Counted from the stretch's first letter, positions 25,112 to 42,319 are shown. The stretch is DNA of 64,000 nucleotides from an uncultured Xanthomonas sp. (GCA_943912265.1 CALTTS010000011.1:15309-79308); one strand, 5' to 3'. The notes: generated from the letters alone by a model not told the origin. A program made the numbers and translations.

Positions 25112-25486
25112 TCACGGCGCCGGCGCGGCGCCGGACGATGCGCGGTTGAACAGCCACCAGCCCAAACCGACGCCGGACAGCGCACCGACCACTTCCAGCA
25201 CCACGCGCCCGCCCAGTTGGTCCGGGTCGTGGATGTATTCCAGCGCCAGCCGGGCGTACAACGGCGACTCCAACCGCACGATGCTGGTGTAGAACAGGTT
25301 CCAGATGTCCACCCCGGCCCCGGCCGCCACCGCGATCACGCAGGCCCAACCGATGATCTGGCCCTGCGACATCCCCCCGCGCCGCCCCAGCCAGCGCCAG
25401 CCGCAGAACACCAGAAGGCCGGCCAGCAAGGCGATCACGCCGGCCTCGAGCGAACCGAGCAGGCCGAAGTGCAGCGGAAGATTCAT
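25112..25486 (-). CDS. Small integral membrane protein (3-4 TM), hypothetical
   Basis: Hydrophobic segments throughout. Last gene of the long minus-strand array. Confidence 0.4.
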   Translation of the reverse strand: MNLPLHFGLLGSLEAGVIALLAGLLVFCGWRWLGRRGGMSQGQIIGWACVIAVAAGAGVDIWNLFYTSIVRLESPLYARLALEYIHDPDQLGGRVVLEVVGALSGVGLGWWLFNRASSGAAPAP

Positions 25487-25544
25487 GGCGTGCCCCCTCG
25501 TGCAAAGGGCGCCAGTCTAGTCGCTCGCACGGGCTGCGGCTCGC

Positions 25545-26285
25545 TCAGCGCACCGGCACGTCGTAGGCGATGGTCGGCGCGGGTTCGGGCTGGAAGGTGT
25601 AGTGCCACCACTCGTTCGGATAGTTGACGAAACCTGCTGCGGCCATTGCCTGCAGCAACTGCCGGCGATGGGCACGCTGCACCTCGCCCAGGCCCGGCGC
25701 GTCGGTATGCGCGCGCAGGCCGAAGTAGTCGAAGCCGGTGCCCATGTCCAGCGCCGTGCAGGCCTTGCGGCAATCGAGCAGGCCCAGATCGACGGTGGCG
25801 CCGCGGCTGTGGCCGGACACTTCGGCCACATAGCCGTCGGGGATGATCCGCGCCTTGTCCAGATCGGGGTAGAACTCGGCCTTGTTCGCCTGATCGGCCG
25901 GATCGGCGGCCCAGGCGACGAAAGCCTTGACCGCACGCACGGGGCGGTAGCAATCGAACATCAGCAGCGAATACCCCTCGGCACGCAGACCGGCCTGCAC
26001 CTTGGCCAGCGCCTGCGCCACCGGCGCGAGCAGCAGGCAGGTCGGCGCCTCGTAACCCGGTACCGGGCGGGCGGTGAAGTTGTGCCAGCCGGCATAGCGC
26101 ATGTCCAGGGCGATGTCCGGCGCCAGCGTGCGCACGTCCACCAACCCGGCTTCGGCGGCGGTGGTGGCCGGTGACACGCTCACCTCGCCAGCGCGGGCAA
26201 CAGGCACAAATGCCGTTGCCGCCGCCACGAGCACGCAAGCGGCCAGTGGGAAATGTCGGGCGCAACGGACCATCGGCGGGTTCAT
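25545..26285 (-). CDS. D-alanyl-D-alanine dipeptidase (VanX/DdpX, peptidase M15D)
   Basis: Zinc-binding motifs SGHSRGATVDL and EWWHYT. Signal peptide present. Confidence 0.85.
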   Translation of the reverse strand: MNPPMVRCARHFPLAACVLVAAATAFVPVARAGEVSVSPATTAAEAGLVDVRTLAPDIALDMRYAGWHNFTARPVPGYEAPTCLLLAPVAQALAKVQAGLRAEGYSLLMFDCYRPVRAVKAFVAWAADPADQANKAEFYPDLDKARIIPDGYVAEVSGHSRGATVDLGLLDCRKACTALDMGTGFDYFGLRAHTDAPGLGEVQRAHRRQLLQAMAAAGFVNYPNEWWHYTFQPEPAPTIAYDVPVR

Positions 26286-26324
26286 CCGGAGGAAGGCGAC
26301 ATGCGCATCATCCCGCCGCCGGCC

Positions 26325-27086
26325 TCACTGCGTCCACGCATCGCGGGTCAGCGCGTACAGGATGCTGCGGTCCTTGCCGTCCAGCTCGGTCGCGCCGTCG
26401 CCGCGGTAGTGGTTGCGGAACGCGCGCACCGTGGCGGCCTTGTCGTCGAGCGGGTAGCCGATCAGGCGCAGCGCGATCCACGGGTCGAAGTTGGCCGGCG
26501 GGGTTTCGTCGTCGCGCTCGGGCCAGCGGCCGTATCCGGCATCGGCCAACCGCTTCCACGGGAACAAGGGGCCCGGGTCTGGCTTGCGGGTCGGCGCGAA
26601 ATCCTGATGGCCGACGATGGCCGATCGCGGAATGCGCAGGCGCTTGCACAGGTCGTCCAGCAACACGATCAGGCTGTCGATCTGCGCATCGGGGAACGGA
26701 CTGTGCCCGTCGTTGTCGATCTCGATGCCGATGGAGGCCGAGTTCAGATCGGTGATCGTGCCCCATTGCCCGGGACCGGCCTGCCACGCGCGCTTGCCGT
26801 CGGCGACGAGCTGGTACAGATGCCCGTCGCGGCCGACCAGATAATGCGCACTGACCGGGCCGCCGCTGTTGGCCGTGCGCAGCGTGTCCAGCGATTCCTG
26901 TACCGACCCCTGATCGGTGTAGTGCAGCACGATCAGGATCGGCCGGCGCGCGTCGAAATTCTTCGACGGCACCCACGTGGCCAGCGGATTGCGCGGGTCG
27001 TGGGCGCAGGCGGACAGCAGCACGGCGAGCAGCACCATGCCGATCAGGCGCGGCAGGCGAAACGATTGGGAACGGGGCATCGGCAT
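26325..27086 (-). CDS. N-acetylmuramoyl-L-alanine amidase, AmpD/AmiD family (amidase_2), lipoprotein
   Basis: Lipobox LLSAC and amidase_2 features (HYTDQGS...HYLVGRDG...GHQDFAPTRKPDPGPLFPW). Confidence 0.8.
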   Translation of the reverse strand: MPMPRSQSFRLPRLIGMVLLAVLLSACAHDPRNPLATWVPSKNFDARRPILIVLHYTDQGSVQESLDTLRTANSGGPVSAHYLVGRDGHLYQLVADGKRAWQAGPGQWGTITDLNSASIGIEIDNDGHSPFPDAQIDSLIVLLDDLCKRLRIPRSAIVGHQDFAPTRKPDPGPLFPWKRLADAGYGRWPERDDETPPANFDPWIALRLIGYPLDDKAATVRAFRNHYRGDGATELDGKDRSILYALTRDAWTQ

Positions 27087-27097
27087 GCTTCCTCGAA

Positions 27098-28741
27098 TCA
27101 ATGGGCATCGCACGCGGCGACGCGGGTAAAGGCCAGATCGGCGTAGTCGTAGCTGAAGTCGGCATCCGGGTCGATGGCCGCCATCGCCAGCGTGGTGGTC
27201 CGGGCGTGCGCGTCGTGCTTGAACGCCAGCCAGGGTTCGGCGTCCACGCTGTCCTCATCCCAGTCCACCAGCCAGCGCGTACCGAGCTTCATCACCCGGC
27301 CACGCAGCATCGGCGAGCGTCTGGATGCGAAACGCACGCCGCCGTCCGGCCCCGGGCAGATGCGCACTTCGCCGAACCACGGGTCGCGGTACACACCCTG
27401 CCATCCGGCCAGATCGCGCGTGCTCGCCGGCACCCGGGACGAGGTGTCCGGCTTGCGCGACGACGCCGGCCGCGCGGCATCTTCCCGATCCAGCAGGCCG
27501 GCGTAATACGCCGCATCGCGGTGCGCCTGCGGTTCGGTCCAGCGCTTGATCAACGCTTCGCCGAGTACCGTGCGCGCGGCCTCGCCTTCGCCGTTGGTGA
27601 GGATGACGAAACCGTTGCGCCGGTCCGGCAACATCGCCACCGACGAATACATGCCCGCCAGCGTGCCGGTATGGGCCACCTTCCATTGCCCGTCCACGTC
27701 GGCGATGCGCCAGCCGAAACCGTAGCCGTACATGTGCGTGTTGTCCCATTCGCGTGCCCGCTGCGAGATCGGCATCGGCATCTGCAGGGCCCACACCACG
27801 CGGCGTTGCGCCTGCGACAGCCACGTCGACTTCGGATCCAGCCACATGCCCACCCAGGTCAGCATGTCGTTGATGCTGCAGCGGATGCCGCCGGCCGGCA
27901 TGGACGCGATGTCAGGCACCACGTCGCCGTCCTCGCGGATCGGCACGTTGCCCGCTGCGGTGCGCATGTGCGGCTGGGCGACGTTGCCCACCCGTGCCGG
28001 GCGCCAGCTGCCGACCTGGCAGCGGCCCATGCCGAGCGGGCCGAACAGTTGCTCGCGCACCAGCACGTCGTAGGGTTTGCCGCCGGCTGCCGCAGCCACC
28101 TCGCCGGCCACCACGTACAGCAGGTTGTCGTAGGCGTAATGCGAACGGAAGCTGTGGGTGGGCTTGAGCCAGCGCAGCCCGGCAATGATGTCGGCGCGGG
28201 TGAAGTCGTTGGGCTCGGGCCACAGCATCAGGTCGCCGGCCCCCAGGCCCAGCCCGCTGTTGTGCAGCAACAGGTCGCGCACCTGGAAATTGGCGGTGAC
28301 CCAATCGTCGTGCATGCGAAAGCCCGGCAGGTATTTCGTCACCGGGTCGTCCCACTTCAGCCTGCCCTGATCCACCAGCCGCGCCAGCACGCCGGTGGTC
28401 ATCGCCTTGCTGTTGGAAGCGATCTTGAACAGCGTGTCCGGCGTGACCGCCTCGCCCTTGCCCGCTTCCAGCTCGCCGGCGGTGCGCAGGTAGACCACCT
28501 TGCCGTCTTCGATCACGCCGACGGCAAGGCCCGGCAACGCATAGTGCGCAAAGGTGTAATCGAAAGCTGCATCCAGCTCGGCCTTGCGCGCATCGTCCGC
28601 ATCCGCCGCCATGCCAGGCATGGCGATGCCCGCCGCCAGCAACAAGCCCGCAAGCAGACCGGTGCAACGTCTTGCCGCGAGCGCAGGAGAAGATGTCCGT
28701 CGTGCCACTGTTTCAAGCCTCCGCCGAGGGTTCGGCCGCAC
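27098..28741 (-). CDS. Serine hydrolase of the beta-lactamase/PBP-like family (class C-like; D-stereospecific peptidase candidate) with extra C-terminal domain
   Basis: SxxK (ASNSKAM), YxN (YAYDN) and H/KTG-like (HTG) motifs. Signal peptide. About 150-aa C-terminal extension. Confidence 0.8.
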   Translation of the reverse strand: MRPNPRRRLETVARRTSSPALAARRCTGLLAGLLLAAGIAMPGMAADADDARKAELDAAFDYTFAHYALPGLAVGVIEDGKVVYLRTAGELEAGKGEAVTPDTLFKIASNSKAMTTGVLARLVDQGRLKWDDPVTKYLPGFRMHDDWVTANFQVRDLLLHNSGLGLGAGDLMLWPEPNDFTRADIIAGLRWLKPTHSFRSHYAYDNLLYVVAGEVAAAAGGKPYDVLVREQLFGPLGMGRCQVGSWRPARVGNVAQPHMRTAAGNVPIREDGDVVPDIASMPAGGIRCSINDMLTWVGMWLDPKSTWLSQAQRRVVWALQMPMPISQRAREWDNTHMYGYGFGWRIADVDGQWKVAHTGTLAGMYSSVAMLPDRRNGFVILTNGEGEAARTVLGEALIKRWTEPQAHRDAAYYAGLLDREDAARPASSRKPDTSSRVPASTRDLAGWQGVYRDPWFGEVRICPGPDGGVRFASRRSPMLRGRVMKLGTRWLVDWDEDSVDAEPWLAFKHDAHARTTTLAMAAIDPDADFSYDYADLAFTRVAACDAH

Positions 28742-28804
28742 CCCCGCTGCGCCGCCGGCAAGCGCCGGCGACGGAACGACGGGCGACAGTGCGGCCTTGC
28801 CGGT

Positions 28805-31678
28805 TCACTTGAACTTGTATTCCGCCAGCACGCTGTAGGCGCGTCCGCGCGGATCGGCCACGCGCGGCTCCCAGCCGGCACCTGCCGCGTAATCGTTCAT
28901 GTGCGCGGTGAACGGCGGGTCGGTGTCGAACAGGTTCTTCACGCCCAGCGTGAGCTTCAGGTTGCGGATGCCCGCGTAGCTGACGCTGTAGTCGTAGACG
29001 ATGTAGCTGTCCACGTTCGGGTCCCAGCGCGGCGGAATGTAGGTACCGTTCCGCACGCTGACCGGCTCCTCGTCCTTGTAGCCGCCACGGTAGACCTGGG
29101 TCAGCGTGTGTGCCCAGTTGCCGCGTGCCCAGCTGAAGCTGAGCGTGTGCTTCCAGCGGATCGGCAGGCTGTAGTAGCGGACGTATTCGCCGACCAGGTT
29201 GTCCGAATACGGCAGGGTCTGCAGGTCCTTGGTCTTGTAGGTGCTCAGGTAGCTGCCGTTGAGGTGCACGTTGAGCAGGCCGCCGAACACATCCTCGAAG
29301 CGCGCATTGGCATCGAGCTCGATGCCGCGCATCAGGCTGCCGCCCGAATTGATGTAGCGCTGGTCGATGGCGACGATCTGCCCGCTGGAATCGCGAATGA
29401 AGTTGTCGGCGAAGATGGCGTAGTTGTCGATCAGCGTGTCGATCGAGATGCCCGACCGGATGGTCTTCTCGCGCTTGATCTCCCACCAGTCCACGCTGGC
29501 ATTGAGCCACTCGGTCGGTTCGATCACCATGCCGAAGCTCTTCTGCTTGGACTCTTCCGGCTCCAGATCCTTCTTGCCGCCGGTGATCAGGTTGGGCTGG
29601 ATCGCCTCGCAGCCGGCCTTGGTGGGGTCCGCCACGCCGCCCGGGCAGCTCGCCGGGTCGGCCAGATCCTGGCCGGTGTACGGGCTTTCGGCCACGCCGT
29701 AGTACATCTGGTTGAAGGTAGGCACCTTGAAACCCGTGCTGTACGCGCCACGGAAGGCCAGCATGTCGATCGGCTTCCACTTGAACGAGAACTTCGGATT
29801 GGTGGTGCCGCCGAAGCCTTCGTAATGGTCGTAGCGGCCGGCCAGCGTCACGTCCAGGCTGTCCAGCACCGGGATGTACAGCTCGGCGAATACCGCCTTG
29901 GTGTCGCGGCTGACGTTCTTGAGGATATTGCCGTTGTCGAAGGGTGCCAGATACACGCCCGCCGCTTCGGCCGCGGCATTGCCGCCGAATTCGTATTCCT
30001 CTCGGCGCAGATCGACGCCGGTGGCCAGCTGCACCTCGCCGCCGGGCAACGAGAAGCCGAGGCCGCCGGACACGCTGGCATCGACCGACGTGGTCACCGA
30101 CGTGCCGCCGTACAGCTTCACGCCGTCGGCCGATGCCGCTGCCAGTGCGGCCATTGCCTCGGCAGTCTGCGATTCGCCCTCGGTCAGGAACGGATTGAGC
30201 AACCCGCTGCCCAGCACCGCCTTCAGCTTGCTGGTGTAGTAGTAGCCGCTCTCCAGCGTGGAGGTGGACTTGCTGTATGCGCGCGACAGGCCCGCGTTGT
30301 AATCCCAGCTGCCCAGTGCTCCCTCGAAACCCAGCAGCAGGCGGTAGGACTTGGTGTTGGTCGATATCTGCCGCGAACCGCACGCGGTACAGCGCCAGCG
30401 GTAGGCGATCGGCGCACCGTAGTTGAGCTGGCCCGCACCGAAATAGGCAGCCAATGCGTTGTAGATATCGTCGTAGGCCGCACCGGTGCTCGGGTACCAG
30501 GTGCTGGCGTCGAACGTGCTGCCCGGCGATATCTGGTAGGGCTCGAACGACTTCTTCGCATCCACCTCCGAACCGACCGCCTCGAAAAACACGCGATGCT
30601 CGTCGTTGATCTTGTACGTGGCGCGGCCGATGAAATCCTTGCTCTCCAGCGGCTGCTGGATCACCGCCGCCGCCGGGTAGTCGTAGGCGCAGGCATAACG
30701 CGCGGTGCTCACGCCCCACATCGTGTAGTCGTACGGCCCCATCATCGAACTGGCGCTCTCGCAACCGGAGGCGCCCGGCAGGTTGAGCACGTTGATGTAT
30801 TGCTGGGTTGAATTGTCCAGCGGGTCCTTCACGCCGTTGCCGATCAGCGAACCGGCACGGTTGGCCACCGTGGCGAACGGCGTGCCGCGCGTGTCGGGCG
30901 ACAGGCCACGGTCGGCCTGGAAGCCATTGGAGAAATCGCGATCGGTACCGCGCAGGATTTCGTTCTTCTTCCAGCTCAGCGTGGCAAACGCGTTCCAGCC
31001 GTCCTTGTCGAGGTCGCCGCCGCCCACCAGCAGGCTGCCGCGATAGATGCTGCCGCCCCCGGCCTCGGCCGCGTCGACGAATGCGGAAACCTCCGCACCC
31101 TGGTAATCGGTCTTGGTGATGAAGTTGATGACGCCGCCAATGGCGTCGGTGCCGTAGATCGCCGACGCGCCATCGCGCAGCACTTCCACACGCTCGATGG
31201 CGGCGAACGGGATCGAGTTGAGGTCGACCACGCGTCCCTTCAAACCATGGGCCGCTACCCGGCGCCCGTTCAACAGCACCAGCGTCGCGTCCGCACCCTG
31301 CCCGCGCAGGTTGGCCGACGACACGCCGTTGTTGCCGCGCTGGTCCACCCCGGACACGATGCCGGCGTTGCTGGCAAGGTTGTCCGAGCCGTTGCCGGCG
31401 ATGTTGAGGTACATCAACAACTGCTCGGCCGAGCTGATGCCCAGCGCATCGATCTGCTGCTTCTTCATCACCGTGATCGGCAGCTGGGTCTCGATGTCGG
31501 TGCGCTTGATGCGCGAACCGGTGACCGAAACGCCATCGAGCGTCTTGGCCTCGGCTTTTTTCGTTTCGCTGTCCGTGGCGGACGATTGGGCCGACGCGGC
31601 GACCGGACAGGCCAGCGCGATCAGCAGGGCCGCGCTCAGGCGGTGGAAAGAAAGGCGTTCAGGCATCAGGGCAGGCAT
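28805..31678 (-). CDS. TonB-dependent outer membrane receptor
   Basis: Signal peptide, TonB box/plug (DGVSVTGSRIK...), a long beta-barrel and an aromatic C-terminus. ATG chosen at 31678; an alternative is at 31666. Confidence 0.85.
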   Translation of the reverse strand: MPALMPERLSFHRLSAALLIALACPVAASAQSSATDSETKKAEAKTLDGVSVTGSRIKRTDIETQLPITVMKKQQIDALGISSAEQLLMYLNIAGNGSDNLASNAGIVSGVDQRGNNGVSSANLRGQGADATLVLLNGRRVAAHGLKGRVVDLNSIPFAAIERVEVLRDGASAIYGTDAIGGVINFITKTDYQGAEVSAFVDAAEAGGGSIYRGSLLVGGGDLDKDGWNAFATLSWKKNEILRGTDRDFSNGFQADRGLSPDTRGTPFATVANRAGSLIGNGVKDPLDNSTQQYINVLNLPGASGCESASSMMGPYDYTMWGVSTARYACAYDYPAAAVIQQPLESKDFIGRATYKINDEHRVFFEAVGSEVDAKKSFEPYQISPGSTFDASTWYPSTGAAYDDIYNALAAYFGAGQLNYGAPIAYRWRCTACGSRQISTNTKSYRLLLGFEGALGSWDYNAGLSRAYSKSTSTLESGYYYTSKLKAVLGSGLLNPFLTEGESQTAEAMAALAAASADGVKLYGGTSVTTSVDASVSGGLGFSLPGGEVQLATGVDLRREEYEFGGNAAAEAAGVYLAPFDNGNILKNVSRDTKAVFAELYIPVLDSLDVTLAGRYDHYEGFGGTTNPKFSFKWKPIDMLAFRGAYSTGFKVPTFNQMYYGVAESPYTGQDLADPASCPGGVADPTKAGCEAIQPNLITGGKKDLEPEESKQKSFGMVIEPTEWLNASVDWWEIKREKTIRSGISIDTLIDNYAIFADNFIRDSSGQIVAIDQRYINSGGSLMRGIELDANARFEDVFGGLLNVHLNGSYLSTYKTKDLQTLPYSDNLVGEYVRYYSLPIRWKHTLSFSWARGNWAHTLTQVYRGGYKDEEPVSVRNGTYIPPRWDPNVDSYIVYDYSVSYAGIRNLKLTLGVKNLFDTDPPFTAHMNDYAAGAGWEPRVADPRGRAYSVLAEYKFK

Positions 31679-31932
31679 AGCGTCTCCGTCGTTGTTCCCG
31701 TGCAACAGGCGTTGGCGTCGTCACCCGGCATGCACAGCGTGCCGGCGACACATGGTTGTCTCCACAAGCAGGAATGGCAGGAAGCCACCACGACACCATC
31801 CCTGGCAATCGAACCCGCATCCGATGTCTGAAAATCCCTGCATGGGCGCGTTCCCCTCCACGCCGATGCCGCTTGCTGATTACCACGCATGGAAAACCGG
31901 CTCAAGCACATTGGCTCGCGCCTGCCGACGAG

Positions 31933-31965
31933 CCCGCCCCCGCGATGCGGAGGCGGGTCCCCTTT
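31933..31965. terminator. GC hairpin + T-run between the two TonB receptor genes
   Basis: CCCGCCCCCGC-gat-GCGGAGGCGGG followed by TCCCCTTTT on the plus strand. About 290 nt of non-coding DNA separate the two receptor genes. Confidence 0.3.
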
Positions 31966-34900: not shown

Positions 34901-34972
34901 CGGCGCCAGTGCCCCCATGCAGGCCCCCAGCGCGATGCACAGCGCCGCCTTCCTCAAACCCTTGCCCCTCAT
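31970..34972 (-). CDS. Oar-type TonB-dependent receptor (carboxypeptidase-regulatory-like N-domain + barrel, ~1000 aa)
   Basis: Signal peptide MRGKGLRKAALCIALGACMGALAPAAFAQ. CarbopepD_reg-like segment (GRVIAPKGESFNGLSITVRNPDTGFSRAVAVDANGNYRI), then plug and barrel. RBS GGAGAG. Only 56 nt downstream of the transglutaminase-like gene. Confidence 0.85.
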   Translation of the reverse strand: MRGKGLRKAALCIALGACMGALAPAAFAQDGSVVGRVIAPKGESFNGLSITVRNPDTGFSRAVAVDANGNYRIPLLPVGNYVMELSRDGGAATKVTDVTVSIGNATTVNVPISGISTLGSVQVSAPRVINMVDVTSTESAMNISSQDVARLPVAQDLKSVALLAPGVVAGKSSLGSQGISFGGSSVAENSVYIDGLNVTDFYNRVGFSAAPFLFFQDFQVKTGGYSVEFGRTTGGVINASTKSGSNEFHAGMEMTFEPSALQAKADDHYAPNGDPYIISSKDDHDTNKIDLWASGALIKDKLFFFGLYEGRFDRDRYTNSSGTTYSDGSTNDGFWGGKLDWQINDDHRLSLLGFSDKDNWVYDVYGYDLDTDTKGDLTNKVYTKSGGKNWALSYTGHLTDGLSLRAMYGDNQRNSSQKSQTDIECNYVSAPVSVRPTGVAAGCTSSSKVESRLDERKQARVDLEWQLGDSHLLRFGVDHEKDTSDYDRHYPGPGGYYYTVSATTPGSTLANGGVVPAGTTAYVRARRYEISGSFETTNSAYYLEDNWSVTDNLLINLGIRNEGFDNKDAAGKSYIKMDNMWAPRFGFAWDMRGDGTTKLFGNVGRYFLPVANVINIKQAGGLLDERTYYALDGWQTKTLNGLTYVTPILGAQIGAVDDSQGNGTVGDLRSEVDRNMDPVYQDEAILGFQQSINDAWSYAVRGIYRKLHNAIDDMEITATGQCGDSYVGWVMANPGKKVTVWGDTNCDGSADGWLTVDTSKEGWALYDDNGNYVGQRGWVKPKRDYKALELQLDRAWDGKWSMNASYTLSWGKGNAEGPVNSDTDFADTGRTENFDDPWVNYNGYGYLPNDRRHQLKLRGSYAITDDWTIGATLDARTGGPITGFGVGNPFDGTNYHSYYVCIENCTSAVASERVYASSTRGAYGRMPFTYELGLSTTWAKQFGDANLRVKFAVYNVTNQQKKLSVDQTLEDDIGHHNETFLWPTSFQSPRYAQLVVSLNY

Positions 34973-35028: not shown

Positions 35029-36552
35029 TCATCGCTTCCCGCCGGCAGGCAACATCTGCCAGCGGAAGTCGTAGGTCCATTGATCGAAATAAAGATTGCC
35101 GCCGCGCCATTCGACTTCGCCGCGCTGGTTGTCCACCGTTTCGGAGCGGACGAAGCGTTTGGCCGGCACGAAGGGCTGCGAGATCGCATCGTTGAAGGTC
35201 ACCCGGTAGGCATCCAGGCCGCCGAGGTAGAACCAGCGCAGGTCCGGGTCGTCGGATGCCAGCTGGCCGGTGGTGACATCCATCGGCACCCAGCCGTAGG
35301 GCGCCAGATAGAGCTGGCCCCAGTCGTGCATCGTGTCGTAGTCGCCATCGGAGAACACCCAGCCGGACTGCCAGCGCGCCGGGATGCCGTTCATGCGCAA
35401 CAAGGTGATCAGCAGCAGGGTCTGTTGGCCGCAATCGGCGTGGCCGGCGCGGAATGCGTAATCGCCGATGTTGGAGATCGTCGAATACTCGCGCGCGCCG
35501 CCCCACGGGATGGCATCGACGGCGGCGAACAGCTTCTGCGCGATCCGGTACGGGTTGGTCTCGTCGCCGACGATGGCCTTCGAGTAGGCATGCAGCGCCG
35601 GGCTGAAACGGATGTGCGGCCCTTCTTCACCCAGGTAAGGCGCCAGTGCGGGGTCGTCCGCATGGGCCGGCGTCACTTTGTCCGCATCGATCCGGAACCG
35701 CCGGCCGTGCGTGGTGACTTCGTAGCGGATCTCGAACGTGGTCGGCTTTCCGGCCACGGCCCGGGCTTCCAGATACGCCGTGCGCTGCAGCGCCGATGCC
35801 GGCGCCAGCTGCGCATTGCCGGAGGTGGCGGAGAGCAGGCGGATGTGGTCCTGCTGGCCGGCGATTTCGCGCGGATACGGCAGCCACACGCGCAGCGTTT
35901 CGCCGGCCGGCACCGCATCGGGCTTCACCGTCAGCGTGTAGTCGATGCGCACGCGCCGCGGTTGCACGCTGTCGGCCCCGGTTGCCCTGGCTTCCTCGAC
36001 CGCCGCCACGTGGTAGGGGTTCAGCGACTCCATCTGGCCGTCGGCCGCCGCGTGCACCGGTGGCGCGCGGCGCGCGGCCGCCTGCGGATTCAGCAGGAAC
36101 AGGTTGGACGGCGCGCGGTTGAACCAGCGCCGCTGGCCGTCGATGTCCAGATGCTCGATCCAGCCGGCTTCGTCCCAGCGATCGAACTCGGCCTCGCCCA
36201 GATCGGGGATCTGGCGCCGGATGCGTTCGAGTACCTGCGCGCGGTCCAGCGTGAAATCCAGGCGCATGCGATGCATGCGTTCGCGCTGGAAATCCCAGGC
36301 GGCCCGCGCGTCCGGCGTCAGGCCGGGCCGGGTCAAGGCAGCATCGATCGCGCGTTGCGCACCGGCAAAGTCGCCCGCGTCGACCATCGCCACCGTGCCA
36401 TCCATGCCGGGTGCATGTGCCGGCGGCACCGGCATCTGCTGCGCGCCGGCGTCTGCCAGAGCCAGGGACAGCACCACACCGAACGCCAACCGGCGATGGC
36501 GGATGCAACGGGGTTGGCGAGCGGGGGCGGACACGTCGACACTTCCCTGCAT
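35029..36552 (-). CDS. Secreted transglutaminase-like cysteine peptidase domain protein
   Basis: Signal peptide. Transglutaminase core with Cys nucleophile (HADCGQQTLLLITLLRMNGIPARWQSGW) and downstream His/Asp. Confidence 0.7.
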   Translation of the reverse strand: MQGSVDVSAPARQPRCIRHRRLAFGVVLSLALADAGAQQMPVPPAHAPGMDGTVAMVDAGDFAGAQRAIDAALTRPGLTPDARAAWDFQRERMHRMRLDFTLDRAQVLERIRRQIPDLGEAEFDRWDEAGWIEHLDIDGQRRWFNRAPSNLFLLNPQAAARRAPPVHAAADGQMESLNPYHVAAVEEARATGADSVQPRRVRIDYTLTVKPDAVPAGETLRVWLPYPREIAGQQDHIRLLSATSGNAQLAPASALQRTAYLEARAVAGKPTTFEIRYEVTTHGRRFRIDADKVTPAHADDPALAPYLGEEGPHIRFSPALHAYSKAIVGDETNPYRIAQKLFAAVDAIPWGGAREYSTISNIGDYAFRAGHADCGQQTLLLITLLRMNGIPARWQSGWVFSDGDYDTMHDWGQLYLAPYGWVPMDVTTGQLASDDPDLRWFYLGGLDAYRVTFNDAISQPFVPAKRFVRSETVDNQRGEVEWRGGNLYFDQWTYDFRWQMLPAGGKR

Positions 36553-36613
36553 GGCTGAAGTAACGGTTGTGTAACACGGGCTGAATCGGCCAGTCAATAA
36601 ATTATTCGCAATT

Positions 36614-36631
36614 GTTGTTTTGATAGAAACA
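36614..36631. promoter_or_regulatory. Palindrome TTGTTT-N6-AAACAA inside an AT-rich divergent promoter region
   Basis: AT-rich island 36590-36645 in a 70% GC background, between the divergent transglutaminase-like and NlpC/P60 genes. Confidence 0.3.
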
Positions 36632-36678
36632 AGTATTCTTCGACCACCCGCAACCCCAACCGCGACACTGGGAGTGCC

Positions 36679-38154
36679 ATGATGTTTCCGCCTGTCTCCG
36701 CCCGCACCGCCCTGCTCCGCCAGAGGCTTTTCCGCGCCACCGGCCCGGTCGCCCTGCTGGCCCTGCTCGCAACGCCTTCCCTTGCACTGGCGCACGCCGA
36801 ACCACCCGTCCAGGCCACCGTCGTGGTGGTCGCGCCGGATGCGCCGCAACTCGTGCCGGACTACTGGATCGCCCGGCTGGGCGACGCGGATGCCACCCGA
36901 CTGTCGCCGCAAGCCGTCGCCGCACAGAACGCCCGCATGGCCGCGCTCGACCCGCACATCGAATCGCTGGCCGCGTTGCCTGCCCATGTGCCGGGCGGTG
37001 ACGTCACCGCCAGTCTGAGCGACCTGTCCAAGCGCCCGAACCGCACGTTGTACGACGTGCACGGGCAGGTGCTCGATGCCGCCATGATCGACGCCATCCT
37101 CGCCAATGCGGCGCTCGATGCGGTGCCGGCCACGGTGGCACCGCGCTACGGCCTGACCGTTGCCCGTGCCGACCTGCGCAGCTTCCCCACGGCGCAACGC
37201 GTGTTTTCGACGCGCGGCGACATCGACATCGACCGCTTCCAGGAATCGGCGCTGTTTCCCGGCGACGCGGTGGCGGTGCTGCACGAGAGCCGTGACGGCC
37301 AGTGGTACTTCGTCGCCAGCCAGCGCTATCGCGCCTGGGTGGAGAAGCGCCGCATCGCGCTGGGCTCGCGCGAACAGGTGCTCGGCTACGGCCAGCGCCT
37401 GCCGGTCCGCGTGATCACCGCCGGCACCGCACGCACCACCTTCACCCCCGACCGGCCAGCGGTATCGAACCTGCAACTGGACATGGGCATCGCCCTGCCG
37501 CTGCGCACCGACTGGCCAGCCGGACAGCCGGTCAACGGGCAGGATCCGTACACCTCATGGGTGCTCGACCTGCCGGTGCGCAACGACGACGGCTCGCTGG
37601 CCTTCGCCCCGGCACTGCTGCCGCGCACCGCCGACACCGCGGCAGCCCCTCTGCCGCTGACCCCGGCCAACCTGATCCGGCAGGGCTTCAAGTTCCTCGG
37701 CGAGCGCTATGGCTGGGGCCATTCGTTCGATACCCGCGACTGCAGCGGCTTCGTCTCCGAGGTGTACCGCAGCGTCGGCATCCTGCTGCCGCGCAACACC
37801 AGCGCGCAGGCGGTCAGCCCGGCCTTGCAGGAGGTGCCGCTGCCGCCGTCCTCCGACCGGGCCGGCCGGCTGGCGGCACTGAAAACGCTTAAGGTCGGCG
37901 ACCTGGTCTACATCCCCGGCCACGTGATGATGGTGATCGGCCACGACGCCGGCATGACCTGGGTGATCCACGACACCGCCGGCACCACTTACGCCGGTGC
38001 CGACGGCACGCTCGTGCGCGCGCGCCTGAACGGGGTGTCGGTCACGCCGCTGGAGCCGATGCGCTTCGACGCCGACACCCTGTACGCGGACCGCATCACC
38101 CGCATCCAGCGCCTTCCCGAAAAGCCCATTCCCTTAAAGATTTCCGCTCAATGA
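36679..38154 (+). CDS. NlpC/P60 family gamma-D-glutamyl-L-diamino acid endopeptidase with SH3b domains (YkfC-like)
   Basis: Signal peptide, SH3b-like N-terminal domains, NlpC/P60 catalytic Cys (RDCSGFVSEVY) and His (IPGHVMMVIGH). Confidence 0.85.
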   Translation: MMFPPVSARTALLRQRLFRATGPVALLALLATPSLALAHAEPPVQATVVVVAPDAPQLVPDYWIARLGDADATRLSPQAVAAQNARMAALDPHIESLAALPAHVPGGDVTASLSDLSKRPNRTLYDVHGQVLDAAMIDAILANAALDAVPATVAPRYGLTVARADLRSFPTAQRVFSTRGDIDIDRFQESALFPGDAVAVLHESRDGQWYFVASQRYRAWVEKRRIALGSREQVLGYGQRLPVRVITAGTARTTFTPDRPAVSNLQLDMGIALPLRTDWPAGQPVNGQDPYTSWVLDLPVRNDDGSLAFAPALLPRTADTAAAPLPLTPANLIRQGFKFLGERYGWGHSFDTRDCSGFVSEVYRSVGILLPRNTSAQAVSPALQEVPLPPSSDRAGRLAALKTLKVGDLVYIPGHVMMVIGHDAGMTWVIHDTAGTTYAGADGTLVRARLNGVSVTPLEPMRFDADTLYADRITRIQRLPEKPIPLKISAQ

Positions 38155-39248
38155 AGATCACCGACATCCGCCTGGGCATGCTGCGCGTGCCGCTCAAGAC
38201 GCCGTTCAAGACCGCGCTGCGCACGGTGGAAACCATCGAGGACATCGTCGTCGAGATCCACACCGATACCGGCCACGTCGGCTACGGCGAGGCGCCGCCG
38301 ACGCCGCCGATCACCGGCGACACCCACGGCTCGATCATCGAGGCGATCGCGCACTTCATCCGTCCGCGCCTGATCGGCCAGGACGTGGCCAACCTCAACC
38401 GCATCACCGGGCTGATCCAGGCCTCGATGGAGCGCAACACCAGCGCCAAGGCGGCGGTGGAGATCGCCGTGTACGACCTGTGGGCGCAGCTGCACGACGC
38501 GCCGCTGTACCAGATGCTCGGCGGCGGCGACCCGGTCATCACCACCGACATCACCATCAGCGTGGACCACATCGACAAGATGGTGGCCGATTCGCTGGCC
38601 GCGGTGGAACGCGGCTTCGATTCGTTGAAGATCAAGGTCGGCAAGGACATCGGGCTGGACATCGAGCGGGTCAAGGCGATCCACGCCGCGGTCGATGGCC
38701 GCGCGTTGCTGCGGCTGGATGCCAACCAGGGCTGGACCGCCAAGCAGGCGGTGTACGCGATGCAGACGCTGGAAGACGCCGGCGTGGTGCTGGAGCTACT
38801 GGAGCAGCCGGTCAAGGCCAGCGACATCGATGGCCTGAAATACGTCACCGAGCGCGTGCACACGCCGGTGATGGCCGACGAAAGCGTGTTCGCGCCCAGC
38901 CAGGTGTTCGACCTGATCCAGCGCCGTGCCGCGGACATCATCAACATCAAGCTGATGAAGACCGGCGGCATCTCCAACGCCATCCGCATCGCCGACATCG
39001 CCGCGATGTACGGCATGGACTGCATGATCGGCTGCATGCTCGAAAGCAGCATCAGCGTCTCGGCCGCGGTGCACCTGGCGGTGGCCAAGGCCCACGTGAT
39101 CAGCAAGGTGGATCTGGACGGCCCGTCGCTGGGCGTGTTCAATCCGGTCGATGGCGGGGTGATCTTCAACGAGTCCGAGATCACCGTCACCGACGCGCCG
39201 GGGCTGGGCATCCGCGAGATCCGCGGGCTGGAACCGCTGCCGCACTGA
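38151..39248 (+). CDS. L-Ala-D/L-Glu (dipeptide) epimerase, enolase superfamily (YcjG/YkfB-like)
   Basis: MKITDIRLGMLRVPLKTPFKTAL... MR/MLE-type barrel with KxK and metal ligands (D..E..D). Overlaps the NlpC/P60 stop by 4 nt. Confidence 0.85.
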   Translation: MKITDIRLGMLRVPLKTPFKTALRTVETIEDIVVEIHTDTGHVGYGEAPPTPPITGDTHGSIIEAIAHFIRPRLIGQDVANLNRITGLIQASMERNTSAKAAVEIAVYDLWAQLHDAPLYQMLGGGDPVITTDITISVDHIDKMVADSLAAVERGFDSLKIKVGKDIGLDIERVKAIHAAVDGRALLRLDANQGWTAKQAVYAMQTLEDAGVVLELLEQPVKASDIDGLKYVTERVHTPVMADESVFAPSQVFDLIQRRAADIINIKLMKTGGISNAIRIADIAAMYGMDCMIGCMLESSISVSAAVHLAVAKAHVISKVDLDGPSLGVFNPVDGGVIFNESEITVTDAPGLGIREIRGLEPLPH

Positions 39249-39268
39249 CCTCACGGAGAACCCGGACG

Positions 39269-40147
39269 ATGCCGCGCGGAGACACCGAGAAGCCCATGCC
39301 GCCCCTGGTGAAAATCCGCTCATCGCGCGACCAGATGTCGGCCATCGAGCGGCGCATCGCCGATTTCATCCTCGACAACGCCCACCTGCTGCGCGACTAC
39401 TCCTCCCAGCAACTGGCCAGCGCCTTGGGCGTGAGCCAGTCCAGCGTGGTGAAGTTCAGCCAGAAGCTCGGCTTCAAGGGCTACCCGGACCTGAAGTATT
39501 CGGTCGGCGAGGCGGTCGCGCGCGCCGGCGGCGGCACGGCCGACGCGCCCCCGGCCGAGCGGGACGACGACGACGCCTACACCCGCCTGGACCAGGCGCT
39601 GCGCCGGGCCAAGGCGACGGCCGAGGAGGAAACCCGGCTGATCAACCCGCGCGCCACCATCGAGCGCATTGCCGGCCTGATCGACGGCGCGCCCAAGGTG
39701 TTCGTGTGCGGCATCGGCGACGACGGCCTGTTCGCGCGCGAGTTCGCCATGCGGCTGTCGCTGCTGGGCGTGCTCACCGTGCACCATGCCGACGCCATCC
39801 TGATGGCCTCCAATTTTTCGGCCGCGCGCGCCGGCGACGTGCTGCTGATGTTTTCCGAATTCGGCCAGCTGCCCGCACTGAGCCAGCTGGCGCGCCAGTT
39901 CCGCAACAGTGGCGGCAAGGTGGTGTCGATCACCCGCCACAGCGCCAACCCGCTGCGCGCGCAGGCCGACGCGGCGCTGGCCATTTCCGCGCACGACCCG
40001 GCGCCGCACGTGGAGCAGTTGCTGTACCGTTCCTCGCTGCAATACCTGCTCGATTTCCTGTTCGTGCTGCTGTGCCGGACCAACCCCGAGCGCGATCGCC
40101 AGCTGGCGATGAACCTCGAGCGGGTCAACCAGCTGCTCGACGCCTGA
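39269..40147 (+). CDS. MurR/RpiR family transcriptional regulator (HTH + SIS domain)
   Basis: N-terminal HTH_6 (SQQLASALGVSQSSVVKFSQKLGFKGY) and C-terminal SIS domain (VFVCGIGDDG...). Confidence 0.8.
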   Translation: MPRGDTEKPMPPLVKIRSSRDQMSAIERRIADFILDNAHLLRDYSSQQLASALGVSQSSVVKFSQKLGFKGYPDLKYSVGEAVARAGGGTADAPPAERDDDDAYTRLDQALRRAKATAEEETRLINPRATIERIAGLIDGAPKVFVCGIGDDGLFAREFAMRLSLLGVLTVHHADAILMASNFSAARAGDVLLMFSEFGQLPALSQLARQFRNSGGKVVSITRHSANPLRAQADAALAISAHDPAPHVEQLLYRSSLQYLLDFLFVLLCRTNPERDRQLAMNLERVNQLLDA

Positions 40148-40163
40148 CCCCACCGGAGCCGCC

Positions 40164-41012
40164 ATGCCCGCCTCGTTCGCGCCGTCCCGATCCCGCTCCG
40201 GCGGCCCGCCTTCACGGCAGCGGCGGGCATGGCGCAGGCTCGCCGCCTTCGCACTGGCGGCCGTGCCCATGCTGGCCGCGGCCGCGGCCGGGGCCGACGC
40301 CGGCACGCCCGACCCGCTGGCCGGCACGCGCCAGCTGGTGGTGGTGATCGCCCCCGGCTGGGATGCCAGCGAGGCCCGCCTGCAGGCCTGGCAACGCGAC
40401 GGAGCCGGCCGCTGGCAGGCGCAGGGCGCGCCGTTCGACGTGTCCATCGGCCGCGCCGGCAGCGCCTGGGGGCTGGGCCTGCTGCCGGTGCCGGAGCAGG
40501 CCGCCGGCCCGCGCAAGCGCGAAGGCGACGGCCGCAGCGCCGCCGGCGTGTTCGCCATCGGCACCGCGTTCGGCTATGCCGAGCGCATCGACAGCGCGAT
40601 GCCGTACAAGGCCGCGCAGCAGGACAGCTACTGCATCGACGTGCCCGATTCGCCGCTCTACAACACGCTGGTGGATGCGCACGTGGTCGGCGCCGATGCG
40701 GTAAAGGGCTCCACCGAGCCGATGCGGCTGGACCTGCACCACGACGGCGACATCCGCTACCGCGAGGGCTTCGTGATCGAGCAGAACCCGCAGGCCGTGC
40801 CCGGCCGCGGCAGCTGCATCTTCGCCCACCTGCGCCGCCACCCCGGCGAGCCCACCGCCGGCTGCACCGCGATGGAGCCGGAGAACATGCAGCGGCTGCT
40901 GGCCTGGCTCAGGCCCGAGGCGCAGCCGCGCTTCGTGCTGCTGCCGCAGGCCGAATACCGCCGCCTGCAGGCCGCCTGGCACCTGCCCGCCTCCCGGGAC
41001 GCGACGAAGTGA
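40164..41012 (+). CDS. Secreted L,D-transpeptidase (YkuD) catalytic domain-like protein
   Basis: Signal peptide and a C-terminal His...Gly-Cys motif (HLRRHPGEPTAGCTAM) resembling the Ldt active site. Confidence 0.45.
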   Translation: MPASFAPSRSRSGGPPSRQRRAWRRLAAFALAAVPMLAAAAAGADAGTPDPLAGTRQLVVVIAPGWDASEARLQAWQRDGAGRWQAQGAPFDVSIGRAGSAWGLGLLPVPEQAAGPRKREGDGRSAAGVFAIGTAFGYAERIDSAMPYKAAQQDSYCIDVPDSPLYNTLVDAHVVGADAVKGSTEPMRLDLHHDGDIRYREGFVIEQNPQAVPGRGSCIFAHLRRHPGEPTAGCTAMEPENMQRLLAWLRPEAQPRFVLLPQAEYRRLQAAWHLPASRDATK

Positions 41013-42319
41013 ACGAAGAAGCCAACGCATCGGCGGCCCAGCCGCATCTGGTCCGCGCAGTCAGCCGCTGGCAGATCGTCGGCCTGTCGATCAACGACGT
41101 CATCGGCAGCGGCATCTACCTGCTGCCGGCCGCCGCCGCGGTGCTGCTCGGGCCGATGAGCCTGTGGGCGGTGCTGCTGGCCGGGCTGGCGGTGGCCCTG
41201 CTGGTGCTGTGCTACGCGCAGGCGGCCAGCTACTTCGACGAACCGGGCGGCAGCTACCTGTACGCGCGCGAGGCCTTCGGCCGCTTCGCCGGCTTCGAGA
41301 TCGGCTGGATGATCTGGCTGACCCGCATCAGCTCGGCCGCCGCGCTCGGCAACGGCCTGGCCGACGCGGTGGCGCCGCTGTGGCCGGCCGCCGCACAGGC
41401 CGGCTGGGCGCGCACGCTGGTGATCGTCGCCGCGCTCGGCGGACTGACCGCGATCAACGTGGTCGGGGTGAAGTCGGCCGCGCGCACCGGCGTGGCGCTG
41501 GTGATCGGCAAGCTGGTGCCGCTGGCCCTGTTCGTGGCGATCGGCGTCTTCCACGTGGACTGGCAGGCGGCCTTCTCCGGCACCGCCCCGGCGGTGCACG
41601 ACTTCGGCAACCTCGGCCAGGCCGCGCTGCTGCTGCTGTTCGCCTACGCCGGCTTCGAGAACATCCCGGCCGCCGCCGGCGAATACCGCAACCCGCAGCG
41701 CGACGTGCCGTTCGCGCTGATCACCATGATCGTCACCGTCACCCTGATCTACGCGGTGGTGCAGGTGGTCGCGCAGGGCACGCTGCCGCAACCGATCACC
41801 GAGAACATGCCGCTGTCGGAGGCCGCGCAGCGCTTCGGCGGGCACGGGCTGGCGCTGGTGCTGGTGGTCGGCGCGGTGATCTCCATCCTCGGCACCACCA
41901 GCAACACGGTGATGCTCGGGCCGCGCTTCCTGTTCGCGCTGGCCAAGGACGGCTACGGCCCGGCCTTCCTCGCCCGCATCCATCCGCGCTTCCACACGCC
42001 GGCGGCGGCCATCGTGGTGCAATTCGTCATCTCGCTGGCGCTGGCGTTGTCGGGCTCGTTCGCCGGGCTGGCCCTGTTGTCGATGGTGACCCGGCTGCTG
42101 GCCTACATCGGCACGGCCGCCGCGGTGCTGGTGCTGGCCCGGCGCTACCGCGACCGCCCGGGCGCGTTGAAGCTGCCCGGCGGCCCGCTGATCCCGGCGC
42201 TGGCCCTGCTGCTGTCGGTGGGCCTGCTGCTCAGCGCCAGCTGGCAGAACCTGCTGGCGGTGGGCGTGGCGCTGTCGCTCGGCGCGCTGATCTACCTGTT
42301 CCCGCGCAAGCAGGCCTGA
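41009..42319 (+). CDS. APC-family amino acid permease
   Basis: 12 predicted TM helices. GTG start overlaps the upstream stop (GTGA). Signature SGIYLLP. Confidence 0.8.
   Translation: MNEEANASAAQPHLVRAVSRWQIVGLSINDVIGSGIYLLPAAAAVLLGPMSLWAVLLAGLAVALLVLCYAQAASYFDEPGGSYLYAREAFGRFAGFEIGWMIWLTRISSAAALGNGLADAVAPLWPAAAQAGWARTLVIVAALGGLTAINVVGVKSAARTGVALVIGKLVPLALFVAIGVFHVDWQAAFSGTAPAVHDFGNLGQAALLLLFAYAGFENIPAAAGEYRNPQRDVPFALITMIVTVTLIYAVVQVVAQGTLPQPITENMPLSEAAQRFGGHGLALVLVVGAVISILGTTSNTVMLGPRFLFALAKDGYGPAFLARIHPRFHTPAAAIVVQFVISLALALSGSFAGLALLSMVTRLLAYIGTAAAVLVLARRYRDRPGALKLPGGPLIPALALLLSVGLLLSASWQNLLAVGVALSLGALIYLFPRKQA

Follow-up and report, generated by a model that had tools for sequence, protein, structure and literature searches.

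A TonB-dependent receptor locus of Lysobacterales under probable MurR-type control, with a proposed role in scavenging peptidoglycan stem peptides

We analyzed a 64,000-nucleotide stretch of DNA (hereafter, the window) from an uncultured Xanthomonas sp. (GCA_943912265.1, CALTTS010000011.1:15309-79308), in which positions 25112 to 42319 hold a divergent locus combining TonB-dependent receptors (TBDRs) with hydrolases of families that act on cell-wall peptides. An original prediction, made from the sequence alone, had proposed that this locus imports and dismantles peptidoglycan peptides. On the basis of gene content, active sites, predicted compartments, synteny, and a shared operator, we consider it somewhat probable (roughly 0.6) that this is a MurR-type-controlled locus for the scavenging, periplasmic dismantling, and catabolism of peptidoglycan stem peptides.

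Gene content and organization of the locus

The window has a G+C content of ~70%, and a mechanical list of its open reading frames (ORFs) is therefore full of wrong-frame ORFs. Genes were called instead by codon-position G+C with a log-likelihood caller. Twelve genes were recovered, 7 on the minus strand (36552 down to 25112) and 5 on the plus strand (36679-42319); these are the twelve genes predicted originally, with the same outer ends (25112, 36552, and 42319), and their proposed domains were matched by Pfam. The features of the locus are as follows.

25112-25486, minus strand: small membrane protein of 124 aa, last of the minus-strand set, recognized by its hydrophobic sequence
25545-26285, minus strand: exported D-Ala-D-Ala dipeptidase of the VanX/PcgL type (vanX; M15D; PF01427, 147.6 bits)
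26325-27086, minus strand: AmiD-like lipoprotein N-acetylmuramoyl-L-alanine amidase (amiD; PF01510 Amidase_2, 118.5 bits; lipobox LLSAC)
27098-28741, minus strand: exported serine hydrolase of the penicillin-binding protein (PBP)/beta-lactamase fold with a C-terminal extension (blac; PF00144, 209 bits; weak DUF3471)
28805-31678, minus strand: second TonB-dependent receptor (tbdr2), accessory (Plug and TonB_dep_Rec_b-barrel)
31933-31957, minus strand: GC-rich hairpin in the oar-tbdr2 spacer, read directly from the sequence
31970-34972, minus strand: Oar-type TonB-dependent receptor (oar), core gene (CarboxypepD_reg, Plug, and OMP_b-brl_4; signal peptide)
35029-36552, minus strand: exported transglutaminase-like cysteine hydrolase of 507 aa (tgl), first minus-strand gene (PF01841 Transglut_core)
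36569-36597, minus strand: predicted tgl-oar promoter (-35 TTGACT, -10 TTACAC/TACACA), proposed from conservation
36593-36609, no strand: operator box 1, AT-rich palindrome GTCAATAAATTATTCGC, overlapping the -35 box of the tgl promoter
36626-36639, no strand: operator box 2, lying towards nlpc in the intergenic region, a degenerate version of GGAATAnnTATTCC
36679-38154, plus strand: exported SH3b-NlpC/P60 gamma-D-Glu-diamino-acid endopeptidase (nlpc; SH3_6 and NLPC_P60)
38151-39248, plus strand: cytoplasmic dipeptide epimerase of the L-Ala-D/L-Glu type, enolase superfamily (epim; MR_MLE_N/C)
39296-40147, plus strand: MurR/RpiR-family regulator (murR; HTH_6 and SIS)
40164-41012, plus strand: exported YkuD-like protein, candidate L,D-carboxypeptidase (ldt; PF03734, 24.8 bits against a cut-off of 23.4)
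41009-42319, plus strand: APC-family amino-acid permease of the inner membrane (apc; AA_permease_2, 166 bits)

Spacings are operon-like across the locus, with 56 bp between tgl and oar and 4-base overlaps at nlpc/epim and ldt/apc, except for 291 bp between the two receptor genes. This gap holds the hairpin, which begins 13 nt past the oar stop codon and has an eleven-pair stem with one G-T pair, a loop of ATC, and no T-run; it was not detected by the terminator scan and is a possible transcript boundary or stabilizer. The two receptors had been placed in a single transcription unit. They do lie on the same strand, but the gap with its hairpin, and the separate operator that precedes tbdr2 in relatives, make a joint transcript less certain than proposed.

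Rfam and tRNA scans gave no match inside the locus. Two longer ORFs of the mechanical list (26308-27258 and 35627-36577) were discarded as wrong-frame artifacts of the 70% G+C. Over the TBDR genes the G+C content dips to 0.62-0.65; horizontal transfer was set aside as its source, since these genes have a third-position G+C (0.81-0.88) similar to that of their neighbors.

Conservation and variation in Lysobacterales

Using homologues of the transglutaminase-like protein, we identified 80 genomic loci, 60 of them with full flanks. All belong to Lysobacterales, in the families Lysobacteraceae and Rhodanobacteraceae, with carriers in Pseudoxanthomonas, Stenotrophomonas (including S. maltophilia), Luteimonas, Lysobacter, Dyella, Frateuria, Fulvimonas, and Rhodanobacter. 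In tblastn searches of the 60 full loci, oar, nlpc, epim, and murR were each identified in 59, blac in 58, ldt in 56, and vanX in 52, and gene-order strings from separate gene calls agreed with these counts. The core of the locus is ldt-murR-epim-nlpc <> tgl-oar-blac-vanX, and the synteny expected of relatives is kept in both families. Because the arrangement recurs in 59 of 60 full-length loci of other genera, together with a shared operator, it is not a chance neighborhood.

The remaining genes vary. Among the full loci, apc was identified in 20, amiD in 15, and tbdr2 in 11. Counting all related loci, tbdr2 is present in 10-11 and amiD in 16 of 80; 11 loci have both amiD and a second TBDR, 5 have amiD only, 2 the TBDR only, and 62 neither (a raw count that ignores kinship). 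Both tbdr2 and amiD are accessory genes with a tendency to occur together, and the core substrate is therefore likely to be a free or cross-linked stem peptide rather than a sugar-bearing muropeptide. The muropeptide substrate proposed at first is thus retained for its stem peptide, which the core genes support, and not for its sugar, which would concern the accessory tbdr2/AmiD pair. The small membrane protein, for which no Pfam or NCBIfam match was found, is present in 27 of the 80 loci, always 3' of vanX/amiD.

The transporter slot after ldt holds an APC permease in 24 loci and a sodium:dicarboxylate symporter-family protein in 45, never both. Rhodanobacteraceae and some other loci carry insertions. 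A lysA gene, whose product scores 470 bits and so passes the equivalog cut-off of 298, occurs in 24 loci; an M19 dipeptidase, a second PBP-fold enzyme, and a DUF819 membrane protein are each present in 18; and FAD oxidoreductases of the D-amino-acid (DAO) type were identified in 16 + 6 loci. These additions fit the constituents of an L-Ala-D-Glu-mDAP-D-Ala stem (mDAP, meso-diaminopimelate) and lend independent support to the stem-peptide reading.

Exact matches to the window came from metagenomic contigs only, and the nearest named relative is 'Xanthomonas massiliensis', with 70-78% protein identity. The locus is not a general feature of Xanthomonas, since X. sacchari retains ldt-apc only. In that genome (L084, CP100647.1) the YkuD-like and APC genes overlap as in the window and have DUF1453, glucose/sorbosone dehydrogenase, and GH3 neighbors; no other part of the locus is present, and an IS110 transposase is found close by. 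Together, ldt and the permease gene seem to form a separate unit.

A conserved operator between the divergent operons

The 126-bp divergent intergenic region is an AT-rich island in a GC-rich genome. It aligns across loci as GTGTAACAC ... GTCAATAATTTATTCTTG-N~15-GGAATAAATATTCC, and the same architecture is present between DUF819 and tgl in Rhodanobacteraceae. Towards tgl it reads TTGAC(C/T)-N17-TACACA, conserved across Lysobacteraceae and Rhodanobacteraceae loci, so that the first palindrome overlaps the -35 box. Such an overlap between operator and divergent promoter is seen in nearly all loci. A consensus promoter and terminator scan gave no more matches than in shuffled sequence and missed this conserved promoter; the tgl promoter was therefore drawn from conservation.

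Box 1 had a single match in the window and 0 in 100 shuffles. Of 83 loci, 57 contain the exact 14-mer TCAATAATTTATTC, in each case within the divergent intergenic region, and the core ATAANTTAT occurred 77 times in that region, 8 times between amiD and tbdr2, and 0 times elsewhere in ~1.6 Mb of locus sequence. Box 2, ~15 bp from box 1, has the consensus GGAATAAATATTCC in most Lysobacteraceae loci and GGAATATCTnATTC in Rhodanobacteraceae. In 8 loci tbdr2 is preceded by its own operator copy, and in one of these (L067) the copy repeats the whole operator-promoter architecture. Both operons, plus tbdr2 where it has its own promoter, share a specific operator by this pattern, and an operator common to the divergent promoters and duplicated before tbdr2 supports the proposed co-regulation. 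As regulator and palindromes are co-conserved, the MurR/RpiR protein (best NCBIfam match the MurR/RpiR family model, 147.7 bits against a cut-off of 355) is the probable repressor at this operator, which could readily serve as a reporter in the search for the inducer.

Catalytic sites and predicted compartments of the enzymes

Export signals were identified on all hydrolases (signal peptides, or a lipobox on the AmiD-like protein); only the epimerase and the regulator are without them. Catalytic sites are intact and invariant across 61-80 orthologues per core enzyme and are conserved in 17 AmiD sequences.

The VanX-type enzyme and its orthologues have signal peptides, and its zinc/catalytic motifs, SxHxxGxAxD and ExxH, do not vary among 61 orthologues; its best NCBIfam models, VanX (183.7 bits against a cut-off of 320) and DdpX (117 against 176), were not reached. 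The AmiD-like amidase conserves the His55/His160/Asp170 zinc site and scores 97 bits with the AmpD equivalog, below the cut-off of 143. In the PBP-fold hydrolase, whose orthologues carry signal peptides, the SxxK, YxN, and HTG motifs are invariant in 73 orthologues. Its relatives in the PDB are distant only, and its best NCBIfam match is AmpH, at 91.8 bits against a cut-off of 266; by these comparisons it appears AmpH/D-aminopeptidase-like.

Since resistance and remodeling are the roles for which the VanX, class-C-like, and YkuD families are chiefly known, the locus could be a wall-remodeling or antibiotic-tolerance island. However, VanH/VanA partners are absent, the PBP-fold protein reaches only 81 bits with the class C beta-lactamase model (cut-off 415), and operons with an epimerase, transporters, TBDRs, and variant lysA and D-amino-acid oxidoreductase genes have a catabolic and not a resistance architecture. 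This explanation fits poorly, and we regard it as highly improbable.

The nearest solved relative of the NlpC/P60 enzyme is DvLysin (3m1u, E 7e-25). Its Cys355/His415/His431 triad is invariant, as are two specificity positions: in a sequence alignment, Tyr217 (74 of 74 orthologues) stands at the position of DvLysin Ala211, where the secreted lysin 6sqx has Thr, and Asn373 (invariant in 74 sequences) at that of DvLysin Asn351. Enzymes that recycle free stem peptides have Tyr/Asp at these positions; the Tyr, from SH3b1, blocks the site for the lactyl group of N-acetylmuramic acid (MurNAc), the catalytic-domain Asp binds the free amine of L-Ala, and A211Y alone turns DvLysin into an enzyme active on free stem peptide (Xu et al., PMC4600125). 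The Tyr/Asn pair of the window is the natural equivalent of that engineered enzyme, and the NlpC/P60 protein is therefore predicted to require peptides already released from MurNAc. A tblastn search with it against plasmids returned five weak, uninformative matches.

The epimerase is 49% identical to Bacillus subtilis YkfB (E 8e-102). Residues R24, K160/K162, D190, E218, D243, K267, D321, and D323 are invariant in 73 orthologues, with K160/K162, D190, E218, D243, and K267 aligning to YkfB K160/K162, D191, E219, D244, and K268. From the structural literature on YkfB, we take Arg24 to contact the Glu side chain and Asp321-x-Asp323 to bind the dipeptide amino terminus. Every catalytic and specificity residue of YkfB is thus kept, including R24 and D321-x-D323, in line with the dipeptide-epimerase specificity assumed at the outset. 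The protein stays below the equivalogs NF041118 (257 bits against 500) and NF011708 (132 against 343), which model the Thermotoga and E. coli types; it matches YkfB far more strongly. Because the alignment begins at residue 1 of YkfB in every orthologue and none has a signal peptide, the Lysobacterales epimerase is predicted to be cytoplasmic.

The YkuD-like protein, with a signal peptide or lipobox in its orthologues, has a His187...Gly-Cys199 motif that is invariant in 66 orthologues; its YkuD match is marginal. Sequence and profile searches identified no PDB relative, and its structural model (pLDDT 61.5) was too poor for fold comparison, with nothing meaningful retrieved by Foldseek against the PDB. 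YkuD-fold L,D-carboxypeptidases have precedent in ElsL and Csd6 (PMC8649774, PMC4599014).

In the transglutaminase-like protein, Cys349/His384/Asp400 are invariant in 80 orthologues, and the matching columns are also invariant in an alignment with distant homologues. Its sole structural relative, by PDB profile search and by Foldseek with a poor model (pLDDT 64.7), is the uncharacterized Cytophaga protein 3isr; Foldseek against the PDB added a weak, non-significant match to PeiP, a pseudomurein endoisopeptidase. From the chemistry of the fold, one may speculate that it cleaves the amide between MurNAc and L-Ala, a cross-link, the bond joining mDAP to D-Ala, or, in another chemotype, a gamma-glutamyl bond.

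The two receptors

The Oar-type receptor has a signal peptide, a CarboxypepD_reg N-terminal domain, a plug, and a large beta-barrel, and its gene, identified in 59 of 60 full loci, always lies directly 3' of tgl. A sequence search of the PDB returned no relative of Oar; for tbdr2 the PDB gave only generic plug matches, and tbdr2 attains no NCBIfam family cut-off. A different established substrate would have told against their proposed role; with no close solved homologue and no NCBIfam equivalog, none emerged.

The oar slot is dimorphic, with type A in 39 loci and type B in 30 (the window included), <56% identity between types, and a distribution that does not track taxonomy. Between Luteimonas salinilitoris (L037) and L. 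suaedae (L011), flanking genes are 88-99% identical and Oar only 53%, which implies that the receptor gene has been replaced by recombination. The types could mark substrate variants or phage/bacteriocin pressure.

The transglutaminase-like family beyond Lysobacterales

The full-length transglutaminase-like family comprises 485 clusters at 50% identity (E <= 1e-30). A metagenome scan with its distant members gave 80 loci of 32-60% G+C, of which 27 have both a YkfC-type SH3b-NlpC/P60 gene and an epimerase gene, 9 the epimerase only, and 6 NlpC/P60 only. Named members include Bacteroides uniformis, B. fragilis, and Mediterranea. In Bacteroides, separate gene calls revealed a tight NlpC/P60-epimerase-Transglut_core operon (L165 7602-11335; L158 5524-9293), in which the neighboring YkfC carries the canonical Asp. 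Bacteroides-type epimerases start with a twin-arginine-like signal such as MQNRRDFLKTAAFAA (L158 6710-7897, L132 6776-7927, L098 10676-11830), and this suggests that these enolase-superfamily enzymes are periplasmic.

In other loci tgl lies beside genes for a NamZ exo-beta-N-acetylmuramidase, a MurQ-like SIS protein, a BadF-type sugar kinase, an MFS transporter, and a beta-lactamase/PBP-fold protein. Such MurNAc/peptidoglycan recycling clusters were identified in L095, L102, L120, L123, and L156; L095 and L102 have an epimerase and no recognizable NlpC/P60. No TBDR was identified in these loci beyond Lysobacterales. Linked in this way to YkfC/epimerase and MurNAc-recycling genes in loci with no TBDR, tgl appears to be a conserved member of peptidoglycan fragment catabolism, and its coupling to a TonB-dependent receptor to be a Lysobacterales innovation. 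This linkage across phyla, with the lysA, M19, and D-amino-acid oxidoreductase variants, supports the predicted dedication to peptidoglycan peptides. The paper proposing the Bacteroides YkfC/epimerase pathway makes no mention of the tgl gene (PMC4600125). As a neighbor of YkfC and epimerase genes from Bacteroides to Stenotrophomonas, tgl represents a new enzyme family to characterize.

The same neighborhoods bear on whether the locus serves a general scavenging of peptides with D-amino acids or odd linkages (lipopeptide or non-ribosomal peptide debris, poly-gamma-glutamate, proteins). NlpC/P60 enzymes can cut other gamma-glutamyl bonds, and the PBP-fold enzyme is equally far from AmpH, D-aminopeptidase, and esterases. 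Further, two Rhodanobacteraceae metagenome-assembled genomes have tgl in other peptidase contexts: L082 (7987-15733), with tgl and Oar beside an M61 glycyl aminopeptidase and an S33-type alpha/beta hydrolase, and L071 (487-5421), with tgl flanked by genes for an M61 aminopeptidase and an APC permease. Yet the amidase, VanX, SH3b-NlpC/P60, R24 epimerase, and variant lysA match the L-Ala-D-Glu-mDAP-D-Ala-D-Ala stem, and distant tgl homologues sit with NamZ and MurQ-like genes. We know of no other substrate that fits the combination of amidase, VanX, NlpC/P60, epimerase, and lysA. General scavenging fits poorly and seems to us quite improbable.

Proposed pathway and its standing

Under the stem-peptide reading, peptides, free or cross-linked, would cross the outer membrane via the Oar-type receptor; with the accessory pair, as in the window, muropeptides may also enter via tbdr2 and be stripped by the AmiD-like amidase. 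In the periplasm, the PBP-fold hydrolase would open D,D cross-links and take off terminal D-Ala, the YkuD-like protein would trim tetrapeptide to tripeptide, and the VanX-type enzyme would split D-Ala-D-Ala. The NlpC/P60 enzyme, presumably limited to peptides with a free N-terminal L-Ala because its invariant Tyr blocks the lactyl/MurNAc site, would cut gamma-D-Glu-mDAP to give L-Ala-D-Glu and mDAP, and the transglutaminase-like hydrolase would perform one further step. L-Ala-D-Glu, mDAP, and D-Ala may then enter the cytoplasm via the APC permease, or in other genomes via the sodium:dicarboxylate symporter-family transporter or the DUF819 protein. There the epimerase, with the residues for it in place, would convert L-Ala-D-Glu to L-Ala-L-Glu for ordinary peptidases; in sister loci, lysA would turn mDAP into lysine and the FAD oxidoreductases would oxidize D-amino acids. 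The MurR/RpiR regulator would repress both divergent operons by binding the two conserved AT-rich palindromes, with MurNAc-6-phosphate or another cell-wall-derived metabolite as a possible inducer. The enzyme roles are well supported; the order of the reactions and all transport steps, including the passage of peptidoglycan peptides through the receptors, are what we infer.

Every step needed had been said to be represented in the locus. This was overstated, as the window lacks an L-Ala-L-Glu dipeptidase, an obvious dipeptide importer, and any gene for mDAP or D-Ala catabolism.

Several points weigh against the stem-peptide reading. No window enzyme attains an NCBIfam equivalog cut-off, and assignments are therefore at the family level; that of the YkuD-like protein is marginal, just above its Pfam cut-off, and structure prediction gave poor models for it and for the transglutaminase-like protein. 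The second specificity position of the NlpC/P60 enzyme is Asn, where canonical recycling YkfC enzymes have Asp. The regulator family senses sugar phosphates, yet the locus is without glycan-processing or MurNAc genes. No recognized di- or oligopeptide importer is encoded in the locus, though the cytoplasmic epimerase needs L-Ala-D-Glu inside. L082 (tgl and Oar) and L071 (tgl) lack any cell-wall genes. Free tri- and tetrapeptides fit through porins, so it is not evident that they would require a TBDR. Finally, the one Oar that has been studied, that of Myxococcus xanthus, is needed for secretion of the protease PopC, not for nutrient import (PMC6434023).

The last two points belong equally to the main rival, in which the enzymes trim the products of own-wall turnover in the periplasm, the TBDRs import no cell-wall material, and Oar exports tgl or imports something unrelated. 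The constant adjacency of tgl and oar, 56 bp apart here, agrees with an export partnership of the PopC kind, and the porin route would serve small peptides. Periplasmic fragments in S. maltophilia imply a periplasmic peptidase and amidase acting on the own wall (PMC13436218). Against this, tgl has a signal peptide of the ordinary kind, with a lipobox instead in Bacteroides, and seems to need no Oar partner, because it occurs with YkfC/epimerase genes (Bacteroides) and in MurNAc clusters with no TBDR near. The operator copy of tbdr2 is hard to square with bystander receptors, and lysA, the D-amino-acid oxidoreductases, VanX, and the epimerase suggest consumption over re-use. We consider own-wall turnover with Oar export unlikely.

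Returning to stem-peptide scavenging, the S. maltophilia periplasm contains dipeptide-stem anhydromuropeptides and free anhydro-MurNAc, produced by a peptidase and an amidase left unidentified (2026, PMC13436218), and the dipeptide-stem fragments feed into L1/L2 beta-lactamase induction (PMC13436218). The S. maltophilia NlpC/P60 orthologue is a candidate for this peptidase, although Tyr217 argues for free-peptide substrates instead, and AmiD, where the locus has it, is a candidate periplasmic amidase. As amiD is absent in the four sampled S. maltophilia loci (L056, L059, L066, L074), the amidase of that species must be encoded elsewhere.

A wider reading, which we put forward tentatively and with clearly more doubt, is that an ancient stem-peptide module shared with Bacteroidota (a YkfC-type endopeptidase, a dipeptide epimerase, and tgl with an activity new to cell-wall catabolism) has been coupled in Lysobacterales to an Oar receptor of two interchangeable types, which would make the latter the first outer-membrane transporter for cell-wall peptides. 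If true, these bacteria, many of which kill their neighbors, could feed on foreign cell walls, and the locus would supply the unassigned periplasmic peptidase and amidase activities of S. maltophilia. Feeding on the walls of other cells with import through TBDRs would have a circumstantial ecological link: Dyella jiangningensis SBZ3-12, Dyella sp. AtDHG13, Frateuria terrea, and S. maltophilia carry the bacteria-killing Xanthomonadales type IV secretion system (PMC6536674), and these carriers are among the carriers of the locus (L018, L023, L058, and the S. maltophilia loci). Much organic carbon and nitrogen is stored in peptidoglycan, and the known routes of peptide consumption are cytoplasmic or Gram-positive, with no established transporter for these peptides in the outer membrane; a regulon that joins a TBDR to a full periplasmic set of stem-peptide hydrolases offers a directly testable transporter candidate.

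Comparison with known systems

Both parents of this arrangement are known, namely the YkfB/YkfC-MpaA/YcjG catabolic branch and utilization loci centered on a TonB-dependent transporter (TBDT). Full-text literature searches returned no account of the locus, of a TBDR linked with enzymes for stem peptides, or of a tgl partner, in agreement with the suggestion that the locus was undescribed, and a 2024 review of TBDT substrates lists no cell-wall peptide transporter.

The B. subtilis ykfABCD and E. coli MpaA-YcjG-PepD systems have the same proposed chemistry, gamma-D-Glu-mDAP cleavage followed by L-Ala-D/L-Glu epimerization. In its epimerase the window has a genuine homologue of YkfB, with 49% identity and every key residue kept, and YkfC is of the same SH3b-NlpC/P60 class as the window enzyme. 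In contrast to that branch, the window hydrolases are predicted to be periplasmic and lie in a divergent regulon with TBDRs, VanX, PBP-fold, YkuD-like, and tgl genes, and the locus has no S66 L,D-carboxypeptidase (YkfA/LdcA), M14 MpaA, or Opp/Mpp transporter. AmpG (MFS), NagZ, LdcA (S66), Mpl, and MpaA (M14) were identified neither in the locus nor in the rest of the window.

With the properties of PcgL and AmiD taken as background, E. coli AmiD and AmpH and Salmonella PcgL belong to the same families and predicted compartments as the window proteins, which stay below the equivalog scores. Their genes are scattered in the model organisms, whereas those of the window lie in one regulon with receptors.

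Loci for carbohydrate utilization with a TonB-dependent transporter (CUT loci) are defined by a TBDT, degradative enzymes, an inner-membrane transporter, and a regulator. The CUT/Nix loci of Xanthomonadaceae (N-acetylglucosamine regulon, NixA-D) have this architecture, and the window locus likewise has all four components in one conserved cluster, where the shared operator supports joint control. However, Nix/CUT loci have sugar targets and glycoside hydrolases, whereas the window locus would target the peptide moiety and has an Oar-type core receptor and no glycosidase; no glycoside hydrolase lies inside it, the GH3 gene at 45029-47206 being a separate neighbor. Known recycling had been described as lacking an outer-membrane receptor. 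A precedent does exist, though an indirect one: genetic evidence implicates Xanthomonas NixC in bringing peptidoglycan degradation products, those of the sugar side, across the outer membrane (PMC4173781).

For Bacteroides thetaiotaomicron, a periplasmic pathway has been proposed with the BT1313 epimerase, BT1314 YkfC, and BT1086/1087 (Xu et al. 2015, PMC4600125). It likewise pairs an extracytoplasmic YkfC-type enzyme with a dipeptide epimerase in a Gram-negative bacterium. Unlike the window locus, the Bacteroides trio has no adjoining TBDR, VanX, or MurR-type regulator; its YkfC has Tyr/Asp and its epimerase a Tat-like signal, whereas the Lysobacterales enzymes have Tyr/Asn and a predicted cytoplasmic epimerase. 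The M. xanthus Oar, likened here by domains alone, has the same Pfam architecture as the window receptor (CarboxypepD_reg, plug, and large barrel) and adjoins a protease-like gene. It exports PopC (PMC6434023), whereas tgl, the partner in the window, has a signal peptide and widely occurs without Oar.

Surrounding genes in the window

Both flanks are unrelated to the locus. The left flank (20589-25031), with an AcnD-like aconitase and a PrpF-like protein of the methylcitrate cycle, is not conserved. The right flank (42330-47206), with a DUF1453 membrane protein, a glucose/sorbosone dehydrogenase, NIPSNAP, and the GH3 glycosidase, is syntenic with Stenotrophomonas. Elsewhere, positions 2156-4300 (minus strand) hold a coding-like ORF of 714 aa with no Pfam match at E <= 1e-5. 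The sole RNA gene and Rfam match in the 64-kb window is a tRNA-Thr (TGT) at 10977-11052 (minus strand), located in a stretch of ~1.3 kb without a called gene.

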